This document shows positions 3,844 through 20,824 of a DNA stretch of 64,000 bases, one piece after another. A program made the position numbers and the translations under genes. The DNA is taken from positions 32,001-96,000 of the forward strand of contig CAVQXP010000002.1 in assembly GCA_963717935.1 (NCBI GenBank), in the 5' to 3' direction. The notes under the pieces were generated by a model. That model had not been told where the DNA came from. It saw only the letters and a program-made list of their open reading frames with translations, and did not search any database. Source of the stretch: Candidatus Eiseniibacteriota bacterium. GTDB lineage: Bacteria > Eisenbacteria > RBG-16-71-46. Numbering within the stretch: position 1 is the stretch's first letter; the number at the start of each line of letters is the position of its first letter.

Positions 3844-6015
3844 TCAGAGGACGAGCAGGGCCGCGAGCGCGACGGCCGCCGCCAGCGCGGCGGTCGCCGG
3901 CAGGCCCAGCATCGGGATCGCGACGAGGCCCGCGACGAGCGACCCGGCGCAGCCCCCGAGCAGGTCGGCGGCATAGACGGGGCCGATGACGGTGCCCCCG
4001 TCCGGCGTGCCGTGGAGCACGGCGTAGGCGAACGCGGCGGCGACCAGGAAGCCGCAGGCGAAGAGCAGTGTCCCCGCGCCCGCGAGCGCGCCGCCGGCAC
4101 CCGCATGGAGCAGTGCCGCGCACGCGAGCCCGAGCGCGGCGAGGGCGACGAAGGCGAGCGCGCCGGCGAAGCGCCCGGTGCCGGGCCGGCGCATCAGGCG
4201 CTCCATCGCCCGCGCGCCCAGCGCCAGCCCGCCCATGAACGCCATGAGCAGCGCCCCGAGGTCCTGGTAGAGCACCCCCGAGCGCGTCTGGTAATCGAGC
4301 AGGAGCGCCGACTCGAGCAGCATGCCCGCGAAGCCCGCGGCCGCGGCGAGCAGGGCGCGGCGCGGCATGGCGTGCCGCCGCGCGAGGAGGAAGGCGAACC
4401 CGAGCAGGGCCGTCGCGGCCCACGCCCACGGCGACCGGGCCAGCGTCCGGGCCTCGACCTCCGGCAGGTCGAGGCGCCCCAGCGAAGGGAAGAAGCGCGC
4501 GAGCCAGAGCATCATCGTGGTCTGGTAGCAGACGGGCCGGGCGTCGCGATTGGCGAGCGCGGGCGTGTCGGCCAGCTGCCGCGCGATCTCCGCGAACCGG
4601 TCGTTGGTGTAGAGGTAGCGCACGTACGCCGGGGTGACGAGCCGCGTGCCGGGGTCGCGCGCGGGCAGGCGCCCGCCCAGCACCGCGGGATCCCGCACCA
4701 GCGGCGCGCGCGAGGCGAACAGGAGGCTCGTGGTGCCCGGCAGCACCACGGTCGCGGGGAAGACCTGGTGCAGCGCCCGGTGGATGCTCGCCGTGCGCCG
4801 GGCGAGCACGGGCGTCCAGAGGTTCTCGGCGCTCCTCAGGCGCAGCGCGAGCACGCCGCCGGGCGCGAGGTGAGCGGCGCAGGCCGCGAAGAACTCGCGG
4901 GTGTAGTAGCGGTTCGTGCGCCCCGACTCGGGCTCGGGCAGGCCGATCAGGATGAGGTCGTACACCTGGGCGTGGTCGAGGAAGCGGCGTGGATCGGCGA
5001 ACGCGACGTGCACGCGCGGATCCGCGAGTGCCGCCCGCTGCGGGTCCGGCAACCGCGGCGCGACGAGCGCCAGGAGCGTCGCGTCCAACTCGACGTCGTC
5101 CACGCGCGCAAGGCGGTGGCGGAGGAGCTCGAGCACCAGCCCCTGCGCGGCTCCGCCCAGGACCAGCACCCGGCCCACCGTGTCGCGCTGGACGGCGGCC
5201 AGCTGGACGAACTCCTCAGCTGCGGTGCCCTGGCTCTCGTAGGCGAGCGCGTCGTTCTCGAACACCGCGACCTGGCCGAGCGTGCCGGTCACGGTGACGC
5301 GCCCGTAGGGCGTGTCGCGCGTGGCGAGCAGGCCCGGATGGTTCCAGCGCGTCATGCCCCGGTCGAGAGCGGGCGCCACGGCCAGCAGGACGAGCGCGAG
5401 GAGGAGGCCCGCGGCGGCGGCCGGCCCGCGACCCGCCTTCGGCGGGTGCCCGGTGGGTGTCCGGCTCGCGCCCGAGCCGGGCCAGGCGGCGGCGCAGGCC
5501 GCGATCCCGCAGAGCAGCGCGGCGTCCCAGTTCTGCAGCCCCGCGGCGGACAGGAGCGTGGCGAGCAGTCCCCCGAGCAGACCGCCCGCGCTCTCGAGGG
5601 CGTAGGCGGCCGCGGGCGAGCGTCCGGTCGCGATGAACCGCCGGGCCGTCCACTGGAAGAGCAGGCCGAGCAGGAGCGAGACGGGCACCAGGCAGAGCGC
5701 CAGGGCGAGCAGTTGCCGTTCGAACGGCAGGTAGGCGCCCGGTACGCCGCCGAAGAGGATGCGCACGCCGCGCGCGAGCACGACCGCGAGCGGCAGCAGG
5801 AGCCCGAGGGCGACGAAGAGTCGCCGCACCGCGCGCTCGCCGGGCGGCTGCGCGCCACGGCCCGGGGCGGCGCCGGCGGCGGTGCCGAGGAGCCAGGCGC
5901 CCAGCCCCAGCACGAGCACCAGCTCGCTGCCGAAGAACGCGACCTCGCACTCGCGCAGCAGCACCACCTGCGCGAGCAGCGCGATGGCGCCGACGGCGAA
6001 GAGCCGGAGTCTCAT
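3844..6015 (-). CDS. Polytopic membrane protein with a central spermidine-synthase-like (class I SAM-binding) domain (fused MFS/spermidine synthase type)
   Basis: About 7 N-terminal TMs. Central TPYG...VLVLGGAAQG...VELD...ADPRRFL...YDLILIGLPEP...NRYYTREFF...LAPGGVL. About 6-7 C-terminal TMs ending YAADLLGG. Confidence 0.8.
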   Translation of the reverse strand: MRLRLFAVGAIALLAQVVLLRECEVAFFGSELVLVLGLGAWLLGTAAGAAPGRGAQPPGERAVRRLFVALGLLLPLAVVLARGVRILFGGVPGAYLPFERQLLALALCLVPVSLLLGLLFQWTARRFIATGRSPAAAYALESAGGLLGGLLATLLSAAGLQNWDAALLCGIAACAAAWPGSGASRTPTGHPPKAGRGPAAAAGLLLALVLLAVAPALDRGMTRWNHPGLLATRDTPYGRVTVTGTLGQVAVFENDALAYESQGTAAEEFVQLAAVQRDTVGRVLVLGGAAQGLVLELLRHRLARVDDVELDATLLALVAPRLPDPQRAALADPRVHVAFADPRRFLDHAQVYDLILIGLPEPESGRTNRYYTREFFAACAAHLAPGGVLALRLRSAENLWTPVLARRTASIHRALHQVFPATVVLPGTTSLLFASRAPLVRDPAVLGGRLPARDPGTRLVTPAYVRYLYTNDRFAEIARQLADTPALANRDARPVCYQTTMMLWLARFFPSLGRLDLPEVEARTLARSPWAWAATALLGFAFLLARRHAMPRRALLAAAAGFAGMLLESALLLDYQTRSGVLYQDLGALLMAFMGGLALGARAMERLMRRPGTGRFAGALAFVALAALGLACAALLHAGAGGALAGAGTLLFACGFLVAAAFAYAVLHGTPDGGTVIGPVYAADLLGGCAGSLVAGLVAIPMLGLPATAALAAAVALAALLVL

Positions 6016-6094
6016 GCCCGACCCGGGCGGTTCGTGGATCGCCCGGGCCGGGTCCCGTGCCCCGGCCGCCGCGGCCGTCGCGCGCGGCCGCGAC

Positions 6095-7675
6095 TCACCG
6101 GAACTGCGATTCCCGGAAGTGGATGCTGCGGAAGGTCCAGAACTCGGCGCCACTCTTCCACGCGTCCTTCGTGAGCCCCGCCTTGAGGCAGAGGTTCTCC
6201 ATGAGCGCCGTCTTGTCCCAGCCCTGCTCGGCCGGCACCTGCGGCAGGAACACCGCCACGCGGCCGTCCTTGCGGATCTGGACCCCGTCGCGGCCGAGGA
6301 CGACCGCGTCGGGGCCGGCGACCCGCTCGAGCGGGGTGAGCACCGAGATCTCGATCTCGAGGTCCCCGAGCTCCGCGGGCTCGACGGGCGGGAAGCGCGG
6401 GTCCTCGAGCGCGGCCGAGAGCGCCATGGCCCCGACGTTCTGCGCGAGCGGCCGGTCCCCGGCCAGGTGGCCGATGCAGCCGCGCAGCTCGCCGCGCGCG
6501 TAGAGGGTCACGAACACGCCCTGCTTCCGCCGGGCGGCGGGGGAGAAGCCGCGCGGGAGCGGCACGGTGCCGGTCGCGAACCAGCGCTCGAGCGTGCGGC
6601 GCGCCAGCCGCAGCAGCGCCCTCTGGTCGGCGGGGCCGAGCGCCGCGTCCCCCGCCGGATCGGGTGGGGGGCCGAGCGCCGCGGTGTCCGCGTCTCCACG
6701 GCCCGAGGTGAACATCACCGCGCCGTAGCCCACGACGTGCGCGGGGTCGCCCACCGGCACGTCGCCGCTGTTCGCCCGCGACAGCACGATGCCGCGCCGG
6801 GCGCCCAGCGCCCGCGCCGCCTCCATCGCCACCATGACCGCCCCCTCTCCGCAGGCGCAGGTTTCGAGGCCGCGGTGGCCGGCCCGCAACTGCGCCGCCG
6901 CGACCTGCTGCAGTGCCGCCGGATCGAGCCGCGCGATGGCGGCAAGCACGGCGCGATCCGCGGCGAGACTGCCCTCGGAGTCGGGGTAATGCGACAGGTC
7001 GCTGCTCGCCACGATCAGGACGCGGCGTCCGGCGAGCACGCGCGCCAGCGCCTGGGCGATGCGCGCCAGGGCCGGCGGGTCCTCCGTGCCGACGACCACG
7101 GGCAGGATCCTCGCATCCGGCAGCACGACCTGCGCGAACGGCACCTGCACCTCGATCGAGTGCTCGCGCTCGTGGACACGCGCATCCGAGTTGAAAGGCC
7201 CGCCCGTGGCCAGCAGCGCCGCGGCGGCCGCCGTGTCCACCTCGGCCACGCCCAGCGGCGTGCGGAAGCCCGCCCCCGGGTAGACGGAGGCGCCCGAGAA
7301 ACCCGGCGTCGTGTGGTTCGTGCCGAGGATGACGACCAGGTCGTACGCCCGTCCCGCCGCCTGGCGCCAGCCGTCGGCTGCGATCTGCCCCGAGTAGACG
7401 TAGCCCGCGTGCGGCAGGACCAGCGCGACGGGGCGCTCGTTGCGCGCCGGGACGGCGTCGGCGAGGAACGCCTTCACCGCGGCCTCGAGCTTCGCGGGCT
7501 CCTTCGGGTAGAACTGTCCCGCGACCGCGGCCGGCCGCACGCCGGCCTCCGGCGTCGTGGCCGCGGGGGAGGAACAGGTCGAGGCGCTGAAGACGAGCGC
7601 CGCGGCGAGCAGAGCCGGCAGGGCGATCCAGGGGCCCGGGCGCTTCACGAGCCGGCGCAGCGGAGGGTTCGTCAT
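6095..7675 (-). CDS. amrB: AmmeMemoRadiSam protein B-protein A fusion (MEMO1 + AMMECR1 domains) with an N-terminal signal/anchor
   Basis: ATG overlaps the upstream stop (ATGA). Hydrophobic N-terminus. MEMO motifs RPAAVAGQFYP, PHAGYVYSG, EHSIEVQ, SSDLSHY, CG, VGY. AMMECR1 motifs GVFVTL...LRGCIG, DPRF, IEISVL, FLPQV, LCLKAG. Confidence 0.9.
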   Translation of the reverse strand: MTNPPLRRLVKRPGPWIALPALLAAALVFSASTCSSPAATTPEAGVRPAAVAGQFYPKEPAKLEAAVKAFLADAVPARNERPVALVLPHAGYVYSGQIAADGWRQAAGRAYDLVVILGTNHTTPGFSGASVYPGAGFRTPLGVAEVDTAAAAALLATGGPFNSDARVHEREHSIEVQVPFAQVVLPDARILPVVVGTEDPPALARIAQALARVLAGRRVLIVASSDLSHYPDSEGSLAADRAVLAAIARLDPAALQQVAAAQLRAGHRGLETCACGEGAVMVAMEAARALGARRGIVLSRANSGDVPVGDPAHVVGYGAVMFTSGRGDADTAALGPPPDPAGDAALGPADQRALLRLARRTLERWFATGTVPLPRGFSPAARRKQGVFVTLYARGELRGCIGHLAGDRPLAQNVGAMALSAALEDPRFPPVEPAELGDLEIEISVLTPLERVAGPDAVVLGRDGVQIRKDGRVAVFLPQVPAEQGWDKTALMENLCLKAGLTKDAWKSGAEFWTFRSIHFRESQFR

Positions 7676-8598
7676 CCTCGGCTCCGGGGAGCGGGACGCA
7701 TCACGTGCGCGGGCGCGTCGAGCGCGGCCAGGTCCGCGCCGGGCTCGCCCGCGGTGAACAGGACCGCACCATAGCCCACGACGCGTGCGCGGTCGCCCGG
7801 CGGAGCGTCGCCGCTGCTGGCGTGCGAGAGCACCGCGCCGCGCGTGGCGCCGAGCGTCCTCGCGGCCGCCAGCGCCGTGAGCACCGGCGCCAGGCCGCAG
7901 GCGCAGGTGTCGAGCCCGCGGCGCCCGGCGCCCTCCTCGCGGGCGATGGTCTCGCGCAGCCCGTCCGGGTCGAGCCGTGCCATGGCGGCCAGCACCGCGC
8001 GGTCCGCGGCGACGGCGTCCTCGTAGGAAGGGAAGTGCGAGAGGTCGCTGCTCGCCACGATCAGCGCGCGGCGGCTGGCGAGCACGTTCGCGAGCGCCAC
8101 GCCCAGCCGGGCGCACAGGTGCGGGTCCTCGTCGCTGACGATCACGGGCAGGATGGGCACGCCGGGCAGCACGGTCTGCACGAACGGCAGCTGCACCTCG
8201 ATCGAGTGCTCGCGCTCGTGCGGCGCAGGGTCCGAGGAGCAGTCGCGGTCGGCGGCGAGCAGGGCGGCGGCGGCCTGCTCGTCCACCTCCACGACGCCGA
8301 GCGGCGTGCGGAAGCCGCTGCCGATGAAGACCGAGACGCCGGTGAAGAAGCCGGCGGTGTGGTTCGTGCCGAGCAGGACGACCAGATCGTAGCGGTGGCC
8401 CTGGGCCTGCCGCCAGGCGTCGGCGGCGATCAGCCCCGAGAAGGCGAAGCCCGCGTGCGGGACGACCATCGCGAGGGGGCGCCCGCCGCGCGGCGGCAGC
8501 GCCACCGCGAGCAGGGCCCTCACGTCGGCCGCGAGGCGCCGCGGCTCCTGCGGGTAGAACGAGCCCGCCACCGCGGGCGGGCGCACCGGCTGTCTCAT
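7672..8598 (-). CDS. amrB: AmmeMemoRadiSam system protein B (MEMO1 family), no signal peptide
   Basis: RPPAVAGSFYP, PHAG, GTNH, EHSIEVQLPF, SSDLSHF, CG, VVGYGA motifs. Confidence 0.9.
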   Translation of the reverse strand: MRQPVRPPAVAGSFYPQEPRRLAADVRALLAVALPPRGGRPLAMVVPHAGFAFSGLIAADAWRQAQGHRYDLVVLLGTNHTAGFFTGVSVFIGSGFRTPLGVVEVDEQAAAALLAADRDCSSDPAPHEREHSIEVQLPFVQTVLPGVPILPVIVSDEDPHLCARLGVALANVLASRRALIVASSDLSHFPSYEDAVAADRAVLAAMARLDPDGLRETIAREEGAGRRGLDTCACGLAPVLTALAAARTLGATRGAVLSHASSGDAPPGDRARVVGYGAVLFTAGEPGADLAALDAPAHVMRPAPRSRG

Positions 8599-8602
8599 CG
8601 CG

Positions 8603-9853
8603 TCAGCTCCACACGCCCGGGATCGCGCGGGCGCAGTGCTCGCAACGTCCGTCCTTCAGGTGCATTCCGGTCACGAACAGCCCATCGCGCTCGATCACCG
8701 TCCTGCCGCACTTCGGACAGTAGGTGTTGTTCCCCGGGTGTCCCGGCACGTTGCCCACGTACGCGAAGTGCAGGCCCTGCTGCAGGCCGATCTCCCGCGC
8801 GCGCTCGAGCGTGGCCACGGGTGTGCCCGGGAGGTTGGGCAGCTGGTAGTCGGGATGGAAGCGCGTGAAGTGGACGGGCACGTCGGGCCCGACCTCGCCC
8901 ACGATCCACTTCGCGAGTTCGGTCAGCATCCCGGGCGAGTCGTTGAGCGTGGGCACGACCAGGTTCACGATCTCGAGGTGCACGCGGCTCTTCGCCACCT
9001 GCCGGATGCTGCGCAGCACGGGCTTCAACTCCGCTCCGCACACGTCGCGGTAGAAGCCCTCGCTGAACCCCTTGAGGTCCACCTTGATGGCATCGAGCAC
9101 CTCGCACATCTCGGCCAGCGGTGATTCGTTCATGTAGCCGCACGAGATCAGCACCGAGCGCCGGCCGAGCGGCCTGCCCGCCCGCGCGATGTCGGTCAGG
9201 TACTCGGTGAAGACCGTCGGCTCGTTGTAGGTGAAGGCGATGACCGGCGCCCGCCGCTCGACCGCGGCGCGTGCGAGGCTCGCGGGGGGCAGCGGCGCCT
9301 GAGCATAGTCCTCGGGGCGGGCCTGCGAGATCCCCCAGTTCTGGCAGAACTTGCAGCGCAACGGGCAACCGCTTGTCGCCAGCGAGTATGCGGCCGCTCC
9401 CGGCAGGAAGTGGAAGAACGGCTTCTTCTCGATCGGGTCCACGTGGATGGCCATGGGCCGCCCGTAGACCAGGCTCCTGAGTTCCCCGTTGACGTGGATG
9501 CGCGCCCGGCACATGCCGCGCTCGCCCTCGGCCAGCGTGCAGTCCCGCGCGCACAGCGTGCAGCGGATGAGCGCGCGCCGGTGCGCGGGCTTCACGCCCG
9601 CGGCGAGCGAGCCCGCCGGGTGACAGGCCGCGCAGTCGGCCCTGCCCGCGGTGGCGGTGGAGACCCAGTAACGCGCCCGCGGCGCGGCGCGGACCAGGTC
9701 CGCGAGCAGGTCGTTCGCGGCGCAGGCGGGCTCGAGCGGGAGCGGGAGCCACCCGTGCGACCCGGAGAGCAGGGTGCTTCCCGCCAGCAGGGCCCCGCAG
9801 GTGGCGCAGGTCCTCAGCAGGAAATCACGGCGGGTGGATGTGCGTCGGGACAT
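8603..9853 (-). CDS. amrS: AmmeMemoRadiSam radical SAM enzyme with a twin-arginine (Tat) signal
   Basis: N-terminus MSRRTSTRRDFLL. DPIEKKPFFHF; CPLRCKFC (CxxxCxxC); TYNEP; VHFTRFHP; YVGNV; C-terminal CPKC/CEHC. Confidence 0.92.
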   Translation of the reverse strand: MSRRTSTRRDFLLRTCATCGALLAGSTLLSGSHGWLPLPLEPACAANDLLADLVRAAPRARYWVSTATAGRADCAACHPAGSLAAGVKPAHRRALIRCTLCARDCTLAEGERGMCRARIHVNGELRSLVYGRPMAIHVDPIEKKPFFHFLPGAAAYSLATSGCPLRCKFCQNWGISQARPEDYAQAPLPPASLARAAVERRAPVIAFTYNEPTVFTEYLTDIARAGRPLGRRSVLISCGYMNESPLAEMCEVLDAIKVDLKGFSEGFYRDVCGAELKPVLRSIRQVAKSRVHLEIVNLVVPTLNDSPGMLTELAKWIVGEVGPDVPVHFTRFHPDYQLPNLPGTPVATLERAREIGLQQGLHFAYVGNVPGHPGNNTYCPKCGRTVIERDGLFVTGMHLKDGRCEHCARAIPGVWS

Positions 9854-9944: not shown

Positions 9945-12701
<2,757 letters not shown>

Positions 12702-14550: not shown

Positions 14551-15696
14551 CTACTTCCCGAGCGCTTCCAGCCGTTGCGCGAGGTTCGGGACCTTCGCCA
14601 CCGCGAGCAGCGCCATGATGGCGTACATCTTGTACTGGGCCTGGCGCGCGACGTTCACGGTGTGCTGCCGCATCACCCCGTGCGAGACCTCGTCGCCGAT
14701 GTCCGCGGGCAGCGGGTGCATGTAGAGCGCGTCCCCGCCCCGGGTGAGTCCCATGCGGTTCTCGTTGCAGATCCAGTCCTTGTGCTTCGCGTTGCCCGCC
14801 AGCGCTTCCCTCTCGATCTCGCCCAGGCGCGCCTTGTCCTTCGCCTTGTTGGCCTCGACGCGCTGGAGCATGAGGTCGTAGGGGCCCCAGGACTTCGGAT
14901 ACACGATGTCGGCGCCCTTGAACGCCTCGTCCATCGAGTTCACCACCTTGAACGAACCGCCCGAGGCCTTCGCGCTGGCCGCGGCGAACTCCATGGTGTC
15001 GGGCATCAGGTGGTAGCCCTCGGGGTGGGCGAGCACCACGTCCGCGCCGAAGCGGGTGAAGAGCATGGAGCAGCCCTGCGCCACCGAGAGCGGCTTGGCG
15101 TACGAGGGCGAGTAGGCCCAGGAGATGGCGATCTTCTTCCCCTTGAGGCCGCCGGGGTTGCACTCGCGCATCCACATCAGGTCGGCCAGCGTCTGTGTCG
15201 GGTGGTCGATGTCGCACTGCAGGTTCACGACCGGCACGCGGCGCGGGTCCCGGGTCGCGGCGAGGTAGTCGTCGATGCCCTGCTTCACGTCGCGCATGAA
15301 GCGGTTGCCCTCGCCGATGATGAGGTCGTGGCGCACGCCCAGGGCGTGGGCGTTCATCCCGAGCATGGCGCCGGTCTCGACCGCGGTCTCGCCGTGCGAG
15401 ACCTGCGTGCTGCTGCCGTCCACGATGACCGGAGCCAGGCCGAGTCGCGCGCAGGCGCCGGCCCAGGCCGACTTCGTGCGGGTGGACTGGTCGAAGAACA
15501 GGGCCCAGCCCAGCTCGTCCTTGAACAGCGCGGTGGACTTGCCGGCGTAGTCGAGGCCGGCGAAGCGGCCGATCACCGCCATCAGGATCTCGAGCTCGGG
15601 TGTGGTCCAGTCACGGGTCAGCAGCAGGCTGCGGCCAAAGAGGGAATCGAGCGCCGCGCGGGCGGGGACCGGTGGGAGGGACGTCACGGGACTCAT
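14551..15696 (-). CDS. ygeW: Knotted carbamoyltransferase YgeW
   Basis: ATG after AGGAG. DQSTRT, HGET, NLQCDIDHPTQTLAD, SWAYSPSYAKPLSVAQG (YgeW signature), YPKSW, YMHPLPAD. Confidence 0.85.
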   Translation of the reverse strand: MSPVTSLPPVPARAALDSLFGRSLLLTRDWTTPELEILMAVIGRFAGLDYAGKSTALFKDELGWALFFDQSTRTKSAWAGACARLGLAPVIVDGSSTQVSHGETAVETGAMLGMNAHALGVRHDLIIGEGNRFMRDVKQGIDDYLAATRDPRRVPVVNLQCDIDHPTQTLADLMWMRECNPGGLKGKKIAISWAYSPSYAKPLSVAQGCSMLFTRFGADVVLAHPEGYHLMPDTMEFAAASAKASGGSFKVVNSMDEAFKGADIVYPKSWGPYDLMLQRVEANKAKDKARLGEIEREALAGNAKHKDWICNENRMGLTRGGDALYMHPLPADIGDEVSHGVMRQHTVNVARQAQYKMYAIMALLAVAKVPNLAQRLEALGK

Positions 15697-16031
15697 GCTG
15701 ACTCCTTGCAGGTGCGGGAGCCGGCGGACCCCTCGAAGGTCCCGGCCGGCGCCTCGGGATGGCGGATGGCATCGTCTGGCCGCCGCGCTCGAGGGATCGA
15801 CAAGCCGCAGGTGGCCACAGTCACGAGATCGGCCCGGCATCGTACCCGCTGTGCCGGACCGCGTTCAACCCGGGTTGGGCCGTTCCGTGGCCCGACGGGC
15901 CCGCGCCGTGCGGGCCCGTTTCGTCAGGAACCCGTGCAGGCGGCTGCGTTTGCCCGCGGCAGGGGCCTCGGTTATCCTCCTTGGTCCCTCACGAACGCAG
16001 GTCTTCCCGCGAATCTCTAAGGAGCCATCGG

Positions 16032-18562: not shown

Positions 18563-19797
18563 GCGCGAAGGCCGGGGCTGCGACCGGCCTGCGGTGCGTC
18601 GCCTGCGGTCGGCTCACGCCGGTCGCCGACGACCTCTACGTCTGCCCGGGCTGTGGCGGGAACACGCTGGTCGAGTACGACCTCGACGCGCTGAGGAAGA
18701 GCTGGTCGCGCGAATCACTCGCGAAGAACGGCGACCGCACGCTCTGGCGCTACCTGCCCATCCTGCCCGTGAGCGCCCGGCTCGAGGGGCCGCCGGTCGG
18801 CTGGACGCCGCTGGTCGCCGCCCCGCGCCTGGCGCGGGAGCTCGGGCTCGCGCAGCCGCTGCTGCTCAAGGACGACGGGCGCAATCCCAGCGCCTCGTTC
18901 AAGTGCCGCGCCAGCTCGGTGGCGCTCAGACGCGCGCAGGAGCTCGGGCACACGCTCGTGACCGGGGCCTCGACCGGCAATGCCGCCTCGGCGACCGCCG
19001 TGCTCGCCGCCGCGCCCGGCATCCGCACGCGCATCTTCGTGCCGAAGACCGCGCCGCGGGCGAAGATCGCCCAGCTGCTCACCTTCGGCGCCGAGGTGCT
19101 GGCGGTGGACGGCACCTACGACCAGGCCTTCGACCTCTGCCTCGAGGCCACGCGCCGGTTCGGCTGGTACAACCGCAACACCGGCTTCAACCCCTACACG
19201 CGCGAGGGCAAGAAGACGGTCTCCTTCGAACTCTGCGAGCAGCTGGACTGGCAGGTGCCGGACCTGGTCGTCGTGCCGGTCGGCGACGGCAACATCCTCT
19301 CGGGCGTCTGGAAGGGCTTCGTCGAGTTCCAGCGCCTGGGTTTCATCGAACGCACGCCCCGGCTGCTCGCGGTGCAGGCCGAGGGCAGCGCGGCGATCGT
19401 GAAGGCCGCGGCCGGCGACGGCGTGATCCGGCCGGTGTCGGGAGACACCGTGGCGGACTCGATCTCGGTGAGCCTGCCGCGCGATGGCGAGGCGGCCGTG
19501 AAGGCGATCCGCGAGTCGGGCGGGTTCGGCGTCACGGTGAGCGATGCCGCGATCCTCGCCGCCATCGGCGAGGTGGCGCGCGGCGCGGGCGTGTTCGCCG
19601 AGCCCGCGGCGGCGGCCTCCTGGGCCGGGCTCAAGGAGGCCGCGCGCCAGGGCCTGGTGGACCCGGCCTGGCGCATCGTGGCGCTCATCACCGGCAACGG
19701 ACTCAAGGACGTGGCCTCGGCCATGAAGGTGGCCGGCGAGCCGCGGATCATCCCGCCGGACGCCAGCGTGCTCGATACGTTGTTCCCCGAGGGGTAG
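18559..19797 (+). CDS. Threonine-synthase-like PLP enzyme with an N-terminal Zn ribbon
   Basis: GTG overlaps the arcC stop. CVACG...CPGCG; LWRY; NPSASFKCR; STGNA; EGKKT; PVGDGN; EPAAA; ITGNGLKD. Confidence 0.8.
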   Translation: MSAKAGAATGLRCVACGRLTPVADDLYVCPGCGGNTLVEYDLDALRKSWSRESLAKNGDRTLWRYLPILPVSARLEGPPVGWTPLVAAPRLARELGLAQPLLLKDDGRNPSASFKCRASSVALRRAQELGHTLVTGASTGNAASATAVLAAAPGIRTRIFVPKTAPRAKIAQLLTFGAEVLAVDGTYDQAFDLCLEATRRFGWYNRNTGFNPYTREGKKTVSFELCEQLDWQVPDLVVVPVGDGNILSGVWKGFVEFQRLGFIERTPRLLAVQAEGSAAIVKAAAGDGVIRPVSGDTVADSISVSLPRDGEAAVKAIRESGGFGVTVSDAAILAAIGEVARGAGVFAEPAAAASWAGLKEAARQGLVDPAWRIVALITGNGLKDVASAMKVAGEPRIIPPDASVLDTLFPEG

Positions 19798-19867
19798 CGA
19801 AGGAAGCAGGAACCACAGTCAGCGTCGCGCTCGACTGTCGACAATCAACCGATCTGGGAGAAATGCC

Positions 19868-20824
19868 ATGAGGAGCTTCATCGGACGTGACATCCTGTCG
19901 CTCAAGGATTTCGAGCGCGACGATTACACCCGCATCTTCGAGGTGTGCGAGAAGCTCGCGCCGCACGCCCACAACCGCCGCAACACCGACCTGTGCGCGG
20001 ACAAGACGCTGCTGACCGCGTTCTACCAGCCGAGCACCCGCACCCGCCTGTCCACCGAGGCCGCGATGCACCGCCTGGGCGGCCACGTCCTGGGCTTCTC
20101 CGACGCCAAGATGACCCGCGCCGGCGACTTCTACCAGGAATCCATCAAGGACACCGTGCGCATGCTCGAGTACTACGGCGACGTGATCGCCATGCGGCAC
20201 TTCCAGCTGGGCGCGCCGGCCGAGGCGGCGAAGCACTCCTCGGTGCCCATCATCAACTGCGGCGACGGCTGGGGCGAGCACCCGACCCAGGTGCTCACCG
20301 ACCTGTACACGATCTGGCGCGAGCGGGGCACGCTCGACGGACTGCGCTGGCTGTGCGTCGGTGACCACCGCATGCGCACCATGCACTCGATCGGCTACGC
20401 CGCCGCGTCGTTCGACATGGAGCTCGACGTGGTGTACCCGCCGGACATGGCGCCCACGGCCGAGTTCAAGCAGGAGCTGGCCGACCGCAACGTGCGCTAC
20501 CACGAGTGGAAGAGCACGTCCGAGTGCATCGACAAGGCCGACGTGATCTACATCGAGCCGGTGGTGCAGGCCGACTACACCAAGTCGCGCGTGGATGCGG
20601 CCGAGGCGAAGAAGGGCCTCACGCCGCCCGAGTACCAGGTCACGCGCACGATGATGCGCGAGAAGGCCAAGCCCGGCTCGATCGTCCTGCACTCGCTGCC
20701 CCGCATGGACGAGCTGCCGGCCGACGTGGACAGCACGCGCCACGCCCGCTACTGGATCGAAGCCGCCAACGGCGTGGTGCTGCGCATGGCGCTGATCGCG
20801 CTGGTGCTGGGCCGCGCCGAGTAG
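19868..20824 (+). CDS. ATCase-like (PyrB-like) carbamoyltransferase of uncertain specificity
   Basis: FYQPSTRT, ESIKDT, INCGDG.GEHPTQ, HSLPR; GGAG RBS. Confidence 0.8.
   Translation: MRSFIGRDILSLKDFERDDYTRIFEVCEKLAPHAHNRRNTDLCADKTLLTAFYQPSTRTRLSTEAAMHRLGGHVLGFSDAKMTRAGDFYQESIKDTVRMLEYYGDVIAMRHFQLGAPAEAAKHSSVPIINCGDGWGEHPTQVLTDLYTIWRERGTLDGLRWLCVGDHRMRTMHSIGYAAASFDMELDVVYPPDMAPTAEFKQELADRNVRYHEWKSTSECIDKADVIYIEPVVQADYTKSRVDAAEAKKGLTPPEYQVTRTMMREKAKPGSIVLHSLPRMDELPADVDSTRHARYWIEAANGVVLRMALIALVLGRAE

Follow-up and report, generated by a model that had tools for sequence, protein, structure and literature searches.

Here, we have analysed a stretch of 64,000 nucleotides (nt) from the Candidatus Eiseniibacteriota bacterium assembly GCA_963717935.1 (contig CAVQXP010000002.1, positions 32,001 to 96,000 of the forward strand; this whole stretch is called the window), and propose that a minus-strand run of genes at 3844-9853 encodes a variant of the AmmeMemoRadiSam system that acts outside the cytoplasm. 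The conserved core of this variant is three genes: amrS, which encodes a radical S-adenosylmethionine (SAM) enzyme with a twin-arginine translocation (Tat) signal, an amrB-amrA fusion gene, and a gene for a membrane protein with a domain resembling the aminopropyltransferase SpeE. We place the system outside because three independent lines of evidence point there, namely the Tat signal of AmrS, the Sec-type or lipoprotein-like signal of the fusion, and the charge bias of the membrane protein. Export, haem binding, membrane orientation, SAM supply and substrate are what we infer from these sequences, and we regard the reading as a whole as rather likely.

AmrA and AmrB are prokaryotic homologues of human AMMECR1 and MEMO1. 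Radical SAM enzymes are regarded as cytoplasmic on account of their oxygen-sensitive clusters and their need for SAM and a low-potential electron donor. The original prediction for this locus was an envelope-facing radical SAM module. Sequence comparison and structural models support it: a start of AmrS downstream of its signal is very unlikely, the signals are conserved in orthologues, and the SpeE-like gene is linked preferentially to amrS of the Tat type.

The conserved cassette has three genes

In the window, amrS is followed by a stand-alone amrB, the amrB-amrA fusion and the membrane SpeE-like gene. The four genes are co-oriented, as first described, and the coordinates confirm the 4-nt gap between amrS and amrB (8599-8602), the ATGA overlap of amrB with the fusion (7672-7675) and the 79-nt gap between the fusion and the membrane gene (6016-6094). 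Proteins were annotated with NCBIfam profiles at their curated cut-offs and with Pfam. Conservation of the run was assessed in the best 80 of at least 597 AmrS relatives in genome contigs by searching the window proteins with phmmer against the stop-to-stop open reading frames (ORFs) of these loci (labelled L001 onwards). Scoring of the membrane gene was restricted to the 54 of 80 loci in which amrS is followed by 5000 nt or more, the other 26 being too short; for the fusion, the 74 loci with 1700 nt or more after amrS were scored too.

Among the 54 loci, the fusion was found in 50 and the membrane gene in 48; among the 74, the fusion was found in 68. Wherever these genes are present, they lie on one strand, with amrS first, amrBA next and the membrane gene last. 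In L016 and L034, amrS and the membrane gene occur but the fusion is missing. All-against-all clustering of the ORFs of the 80 loci returned only these three genes as conserved, together with ORFs that overlap them out of frame or in antisense. The four-gene unit originally proposed is therefore not borne out, and the conserved core consists of amrS, the amrB-amrA fusion and the membrane gene. The stand-alone AmrB shares 63% identity with the corresponding half of the fusion. Among the 80 loci, only L001-L003, the closest relatives, have a counterpart of it, and there too no hydrophobic segment stands ahead of the domain. It is a recent paralogue that lies outside the conserved unit.

The record titles of the 80 loci name Candidatus Eisenbacteria (the closest, with 91% and 86% identity), Acidobacteriota, Syntrophales and other former Deltaproteobacteria, Ignavibacteria/Bacteroidota, Latescibacterota, Calditrichaeota, Kryptoniota, KSB1, Fibrobacteraceae and Myxococcales.

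Seven plasmid records with an AmrS homologue at 40-45% identity, retrieved by tblastn, served as the signal-less control. None of the seven AmrS proteins has a Tat signal or a CxxCH motif, and no part of the membrane protein has a match within 6 kb of them at E ≤ 1e-3. The linkage of the SpeE-like gene to Tat-type amrS, part of the original prediction, was found in 48/54 Tat-type loci and 0/7 signal-less loci (Fisher p = 3.9e-6), with a small, plasmid-only control and with loci that are not phylogenetically independent. An AmrB-AmrA fusion lies beside the signal-less AmrS in two of the seven plasmid loci, where amrBA comes first.

At least 14 AmrS matches and membrane-protein matches share the size of their longest contig (for example 12077, 13581, 17238, 44209 and 108088), which suggests that amrS and the membrane gene stand on the same contigs in metagenomes too.

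AmrS is a radical SAM enzyme with a conserved Tat signal

AmrS scores 365.8 bits with TIGR04337 (cut-off 220) over residues 95-415 and 55.3 bits with Pfam Radical_SAM, PF04055 (cut-off 29.5). We collected its best 120 homologues, which share 63-92% identity, are nearly all 404-438 amino acids (aa) long and cover the whole query; an alignment of 52 sequences was built from the window protein and 51 of these. All 52 match TIGR04337, and the alignment shows additional four-Cys motifs on the N- and C-terminal sides of AmrS. The closest solved fold found by Foldseek is pyruvate formate-lyase (PFL)-activating enzyme (3cb8; template modelling (TM) score 0.81, E 2.7e-15), which was also the sole match in a sequence search of the PDB (E 5.6e-4); by that search the PDB holds no AmrS structure.

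The N-terminus of AmrS reads MSRRTSTRRDFLL and continues into a hydrophobic stretch. The AlphaFold2 model (predicted local distance difference test (pLDDT) score 85) has a helix at residues 8-29, followed by disorder at 29-44. That AmrS opens with the twin-arginine motif TRRDFLL and a hydrophobic stretch had been noted originally, and it is confirmed by TIGR01409 (TAT_signal_seq), which matches residues 7-31 with 19.2 bits against a cut-off of 16.7. PMC3712460 gives the Tat consensus as SRRxFLK, to be compared with TRRDFLL in the window.

R8 and R9 are invariant in the 52 aligned sequences, and an RR motif stands near the N-terminus of 114/120 homologues. The six without it all start later: five are N-terminally short, and the sixth, P0065, is a 334-aa form that lacks the whole N-terminal part, so that its motif match is internal and it has no signal. 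At the level of the loci, RR precedes the AmrS core in 77/80; L032 has KR instead, and two ORFs are cut by the contig end. The orthologues belong, by their record titles, to at least nine phylum-level groups, and since the N-terminal features are kept across these groups we take them to be above chance. The next in-frame start of the window gene is a GTG at 9595. A start there would delete a region that is conserved across phyla, and a downstream start is therefore very unlikely. A 'small-x-small' signal peptidase site was present in 114/114 sequences, but in stretches this rich in Ala and Gly the criterion is so permissive that it carries no information.

The hydrophobic part of the Tat signal in the window contains a CxxC pair (TCATCG, residues 16-19, 9796-9807), which recurs in the closest AmrS homologues (CAACG, CAGCG) and is absent from distant ones.

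An inserted CxxCH segment follows the signal

Between the signal and residue 95, where the TIGR04337 profile begins, AmrS has an add-on of 49 residues (46-94). P58, R61, W63, C74, C77 and H78 of this segment are invariant in 52/52 aligned sequences, and H91 is at least 90% conserved. The motif CxxCH formed by residues 74-78 is the attachment motif of haem c. It occurs in 119/120 AmrS homologues and in 74/80 loci, sits 29 residues past the predicted end of the signal, and in 108 of the 119 homologues that bear it stands 24 residues ahead of the first Cys of a CxxCxxxC motif. The signal-less AmrS of the seven plasmids keeps the RYW motif and spans only ~13 residues from RYW to the Cys motif, and CxxCH therefore sits in an insertion. 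A Foldseek search with the AmrS model returned radical SAM cores only and no match for the add-on.

The CxxCH motif and the conserved second His could form a small bis-His haem c site that feeds electrons to the iron-sulphur (Fe-S) clusters, a candidate role to which we give about an even chance. Split-Soret cytochromes c, for which PMC4429474 reports predicted Tat signals, offer a precedent for Tat combined with CxxCH.

The AmrB-AmrA fusion has an N-terminal signal

TIGR04336 recognises both the stand-alone AmrB (236.9 bits) and the fusion (237.7 bits) far above its cut-off of 26, and TIGR04335 matches residues 353-520 of the fusion with 164.1 bits (cut-off 99). The fusion begins with MTNPPLRRLVKRPGPWIALPALLAAALVFSASTC and has a hydrophobic segment at residues 13-36. 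In 66 fusion ORFs we scanned the stretch leading up to the Memo domain (at most 45 residues), whatever the start codon, for a run of 12 residues with a mean Kyte-Doolittle value of at least 1.9. Such a segment lies directly ahead of the domain in 65/66, in keeping with the signal-like start first described for the window fusion; the 66th, L002, reaches 1.88. With chosen starts, the N-termini resemble signal peptides, and many end in Cys. A loose lipobox-like pattern is found in 23/66 orthologues; the window sequence, FSASTC, has Thr at -1 and is ambiguous in this respect.

The membrane partner places a SpeE-like domain between two helix bundles

Pfam assigns residues 271-424 of the membrane protein to Spermine_synth. 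In NCBIfam the protein matches SpeE-type models only, all of them far below their equivalog cut-offs (PRK03612, 92.2 against 472 bits; PRK00811, 75.9 against 260; TIGR00417, 58.1 against 249.55); PRK03612, whose profile covers membrane helices as well, aligns with residues 129-392. The AlphaFold2 model (pLDDT 90.6, predicted TM score 0.91) starts with a bundle of seven helices, continues with a domain at residues 229-483 and three short helices, and ends with another seven helices. Foldseek finds 1uir for the domain (E 1.3e-12); 1uir and 3anx give target-normalised TM scores of 0.72-0.75 at E 1e-12 to 1e-10, and the best 50 matches listed are all aminopropyltransferases.

We aligned 39 membrane proteins, the window protein and 38 of 48 full-length orthologues, after dropping seven near-duplicates and three sequences with uncertain starts (L036, L038 and L076). 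The family has GGGxEG (GGAAQG in the window) and GMPEP (GLPEP in the window) where SpeE has its GGGDG and DSTDP motifs, which contain the catalytic and dcSAM-selecting acidic residues; the correspondence was made by eye. The domain keeps the glycine-rich loop, E309, the acidic residue after strand 2, and D341. With the SpeE motifs altered and the loop and acidic residues kept, the domain is expected to bind an adenosyl ligand without carrying out classical aminopropyl transfer.

Across the 39 sequences, the loops on the N-terminal side hold on average 19.5 Lys and Arg per protein, and those on the opposite side, where the SpeE-like domain lies, 8.3. From this bias, the positive-inside rule predicts a cytoplasmic N-terminus and a periplasmic SpeE-like domain. 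Five charged residues inside helices, R21, E22, E141, E568 and D684, are invariant or nearly so and would suit a transporter of a charged substrate. No Pfam match to the major facilitator superfamily (MFS) was found at E ≤ 0.01. When the N- and C-terminal helix bundles were compared by hhalign, helices 4-5 paired with 12-13 at a weak probability of 24% (P 8e-4), and the bundles share similar motifs (QVVLLRE and GMLLE; AYAxESxGGxxGG and LYAADLxGGCxGS). The arrangement may thus resemble that of 14-helix MFS proteins, the two bundles being repeats and the domain sitting between the two central helices. Databases name the homologues 'hypothetical protein' or 'spermidine synthase', and the ESM Atlas gives generic names only; the label 'spermidine synthase' is probably wrong for this partner.

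Tat-like AmrS is frequent in the wider family

We searched 1.84 billion cluster representatives (50% identity) with AmrS and sorted the best 150 by a motif rule of our own. A short, signal-less N-terminus was found in 80 and a Tat-like one in 27, three of them with CxxCH and 24 without. Another 13 have 36-140 residues without RR, some of them Sec- or lipoprotein-like (e.g. P0280); 14 are long N-terminal fusions, and 16 are fragments without a recognisable core motif. That 27/150 are Tat-like implies that the signal is kept in many diverged lineages and that exported-looking AmrS is frequent and diverse; the CxxCH type of the window is one clade among them. The 14 long fusions have N-terminal extensions of more than 140 aa in proteins of ~440-1150 aa (among P0241-P0390), and a few representatives, such as P0280 and P0313, have Sec- or lipoprotein-like N-termini in place of Tat.

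Features and surroundings of the cassette

The features of the cassette are collected in Table 1.

Table 1. Genes and sub-features of the cassette in the window
Feature	Position	Strand	Details
amrS, AmmeMemoRadiSam radical SAM enzyme with Tat signal	8603-9853 (stop codon included)	-	416 aa, ATG at 9853; TIGR04337
Probable Tat signal peptide region of AmrS, residues 1-45	9719-9853	-	TIGR01409 and conserved RR (residues 8-9, 9827-9832)
N-terminal add-on of mature AmrS, residues 46-94	9572-9718	-	conservation; APRARYW motif; CxxCH at residues 74-78 (9620-9634)
CX3CX2C radical SAM cluster motif CPLRCKFC, residues 163-170	9344-9367	-	C163, C167 and C170 invariant in 52/52
amrB, stand-alone Memo-like protein without signal peptide	7672-8598	-	308 aa; TIGR04336, 236.9 bits
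amrB-amrA fusion with N-terminal signal	6095-7675	-	526 aa; TIGR04336 residues 47-322, TIGR04335 residues 353-520
Fusion, signal, residues 1-34	7574-7675	-	
Fusion, Memo domain	6710-7537	-	
Fusion, AMMECR1 domain	6116-6619	-	
Membrane protein	3844-6015	-	723 aa
Membrane protein, seven N-terminal transmembrane helices	5347-6015	-	
Membrane protein, SpeE-like Rossmann domain	4567-5331	-	
Membrane protein, seven C-terminal transmembrane helices	3850-4431	-	

Upstream of amrS, a hybrid histidine kinase gene (HisKA, HATPase_c, receiver and Hpt domains; 9945-12701, minus strand) ends 92 nt away; in the 80 loci it is not a conserved neighbour of the cassette. On the other side, immediately after the membrane gene, a minus-strand ORF at 2202 to about 3730 has a signal-like N-terminus whose final Cys precedes TIISG. 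Pfam gave no match to this ORF at E ≤ 1e-5, and our guess is that it may encode an exported N-terminal-nucleophile hydrolase. Two genes of the aspartate/ornithine carbamoyltransferase family, at 14554-15864 (minus strand) and 19727-20821 (plus strand), lie less than 6 kb apart, and near them are genes for an M20 peptidase, a pyridoxal-phosphate enzyme and a class-V aminotransferase. Neither tat nor cytochrome c maturation genes were found among the 29 window ORFs scanned.

Discussion

How an AmmeMemoRadiSam system could work outside the cytoplasm is suggested by the parts of the cassette. AmrS would be synthesised in the cytoplasm, receive its Fe-S clusters there and be exported in the folded state by Tat. 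A haem c site at CxxCH could then accept electrons from carriers in the periplasm and relay them to the radical SAM cluster. The AmrB-AmrA fusion, with its Sec-type and often lipoprotein-like signal, would be located at the outer face of the cytoplasmic membrane. The 14-helix membrane protein, whose SpeE-like domain lies between helices 7 and 8, would be the component specific to the exported type. It might carry SAM or a SAM-derived group across the membrane and present it there, a supply role that we regard as doubtful; alternatively, it might transfer a SAM-derived group onto the same envelope substrate. We favour an envelope lipid or an envelope protein as the substrate class. The signal-less AmrB of the window could hitch-hike with AmrS through Tat or stay in the cytoplasm.

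Put at its boldest, the cassette would be a self-contained radical SAM system outside the cytoplasm, the first of its kind, in which a Tat-exported AmrS with its own haem c is served by a SAM-exporting 14-helix protein that holds SAM on a periplasmic SpeE-like domain, and acts with a lipoprotein homologue of MEMO1/AMMECR1 to modify an envelope lipid or protein. We put this full version forward only tentatively.

Several observations weigh against an exported system, and some of them concern the haem. Haem c is normally attached to unfolded Sec substrates, while Tat exports folded proteins. Six of the 80 loci (L046, L063, L070, L071, L075 and L077) keep the Tat signal without CxxCH, as do 24 of the 27 Tat-like family representatives, so that haem, if bound, is not essential to exported AmrS. 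The six loci are of the Syntrophales/Smithella type. Their segment is ~12-15 residues shorter, with the RYW motif retained, and the fusion and the membrane gene are kept in five of them; the sixth, L046, ends too early to judge. A single CxxCH is also a poor indicator of haem c: a survey of archaeal proteins with one such motif judged 4347/4410 to be false positives (PMC4429474).

The remaining points against export concern location and linkage. The export of AmrS and of the fusion is read from motifs alone, and the orientation of the membrane protein solely from the positive-inside rule. The membrane gene was not found nearby in 6/54 loci; L005, L013 and L020 lack it, and amrS stands alone in L010, L032 and L030, the last from Desulfonema magnum, the only cultured organism, of which 8 kb on either side of amrS were covered. 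The neighbours in loci without the partners are unrelated (thiolase, SpoIIE/HAMP, MgtC, PgpA and others).

It could be argued that AmrS stays on the cytoplasmic side, held by an uncleaved Tat-like anchor or bearing a non-functional signal, and uses cytoplasmic SAM and reductant at the inner face while the membrane protein passes the product out and only the fusion is outside. To our knowledge, SAM and a low-potential donor are found only in the cytoplasm, and we know of neither in the periplasm. The stand-alone AmrB of the window has no hydrophobic segment ahead of its domain, and TIGR01409, a model of 29 positions, matched just 15/52 aligned AmrS sequences at E ≤ 0.01. We attribute this low rate to the shortness of the model, which makes it a poor test of conservation, and take the invariant RR pair as the measure. 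The family does include a case split across the membrane: in the Segatella hominis plasmid NZ_CP137560.1 (L083, 4408-6825), the fusion starts signal-like, MRKIVLVVLLTMC, beside an AmrS of 295 aa in which both the Tat signal and the C-terminal Cys motifs are missing, and the two proteins appear to lie on opposite sides of the membrane. It follows that AmrS and AmrB-AmrA need not share a compartment, and a model in which the radical SAM step and that of AmrA/AmrB are not joint but sequential across the membrane stays alive. In the cassette studied here, however, the invariant RR is followed by the moderately hydrophobic stretch typical of Tat signals, and even an N-terminal anchor preceded by positive charges would still put the rest of the chain outside. 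Moreover, the CxxCH conserved right after the signal makes most sense outside the cytoplasm, and the Lys and Arg bias of the membrane protein places the SpeE-like domain there too. We therefore consider a cytoplasmic AmrS unlikely.

Alternatively, AmrS could be an exported maturase that modifies AmrB or AmrA once, with SAM bound before export and the signal-less AmrB possibly a Tat hitch-hiker, while the membrane protein, as a transferase in its own right, modifies the final substrate instead of supplying SAM. The solved fold nearest to AmrS belongs to an enzyme that acts on a protein, NCBIfam models of glycyl-radical activases match 52/52 AmrS sequences weakly, and the SpeE-like domain has retained a glycine-rich loop and acidic residues such as nucleotide-binding Rossmann folds have. 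PMC10924467 describes export by Tat of folded proteins together with their cofactors and with partners that have no signal. On the other hand, signal-less AmrB is limited to 3/80 loci and its hitch-hiking is therefore not general, no glycyl-radical-type motif came to light in AmrA or AmrB, although no search aimed at one was made, and we judge the maturase improbable. Scarcely credible is that the signals are artefacts of gene-start choice or that the SpeE-like linkage is coincidental. The first 16 kb of the window have a G+C content of 67-77% (71-77% is given for the genome), which accounts for the many long spurious ORFs, and alternative starts occur in every frame; but protein-level conservation of the N-terminal regions extends to loci from other phyla with 34-64% G+C, and the synteny holds in 48/54 loci.

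If the exported form that we favour is real, radical SAM chemistry would extend to the periplasm, which implies routes for SAM and electrons that are not known there; the CxxCH add-on and the SpeE-like membrane protein are candidates for the electron and SAM routes, respectively. With ~1/5 of the sampled AmrS representatives Tat-like, this would be a widespread and overlooked compartment for radical chemistry. For MEMO1 and AMMECR1, a variant in which all three parts point to the envelope would also narrow the search for the substrate. Burroughs et al. 2019 (J Biol Chem 294:10211), the principal comparative work on gene contexts of Memo, AMMECR1 and radical SAM proteins, reportedly link the contexts of Memo to nucleotide-base and isoprenoid modification. 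The literature searched contained neither an account of AmmeMemoRadiSam proteins being exported nor one of radical SAM enzymes in the periplasm, nor the phrase 'periplasmic radical SAM', and one paper mentions 'Memo-Ammecr1 systems' by citation only, although Burroughs et al. 2019 may already mention secreted forms; the part of the MEMO1 review PMC7694686 available to us has nothing on an exported form.

Compared with known systems, the cassette is closest to AmmeMemoRadiSam as defined by TIGR04335 (AmrA), TIGR04336 (AmrB) and TIGR04337 (AmrS), as all three profiles score above their cut-offs on adjacent, co-oriented genes. It differs in that AmrS adds a Tat signal and the 49-residue CxxCH add-on, the fusion has an export signal, and the 14-helix SpeE-like protein is a third conserved partner; amrS also comes first, whereas AmrBA comes first in two of the plasmid controls. 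AmrS shares its fold and the CX3CX2C motif with PFL-activating enzyme and other glycyl-radical activases. These are cytoplasmic proteins of ~245 aa without a signal, unlike AmrS with its extra N- and C-terminal four-Cys motifs, and the NCBIfam activase models fall far below their cut-offs on AmrS (e.g. 47 against 232 bits). With Tat-exported redox proteins, AmrS shares an N-terminal RR signal on a protein that needs Fe-S insertion in the cytoplasm, and we know of no Tat substrate that is a radical SAM enzyme. The central domain of the membrane protein has the fold of SpeE aminopropyltransferases, including the membrane-bound PRK03612 type, but it is set between two seven-helix bundles and differs from them at the catalytic-motif positions.

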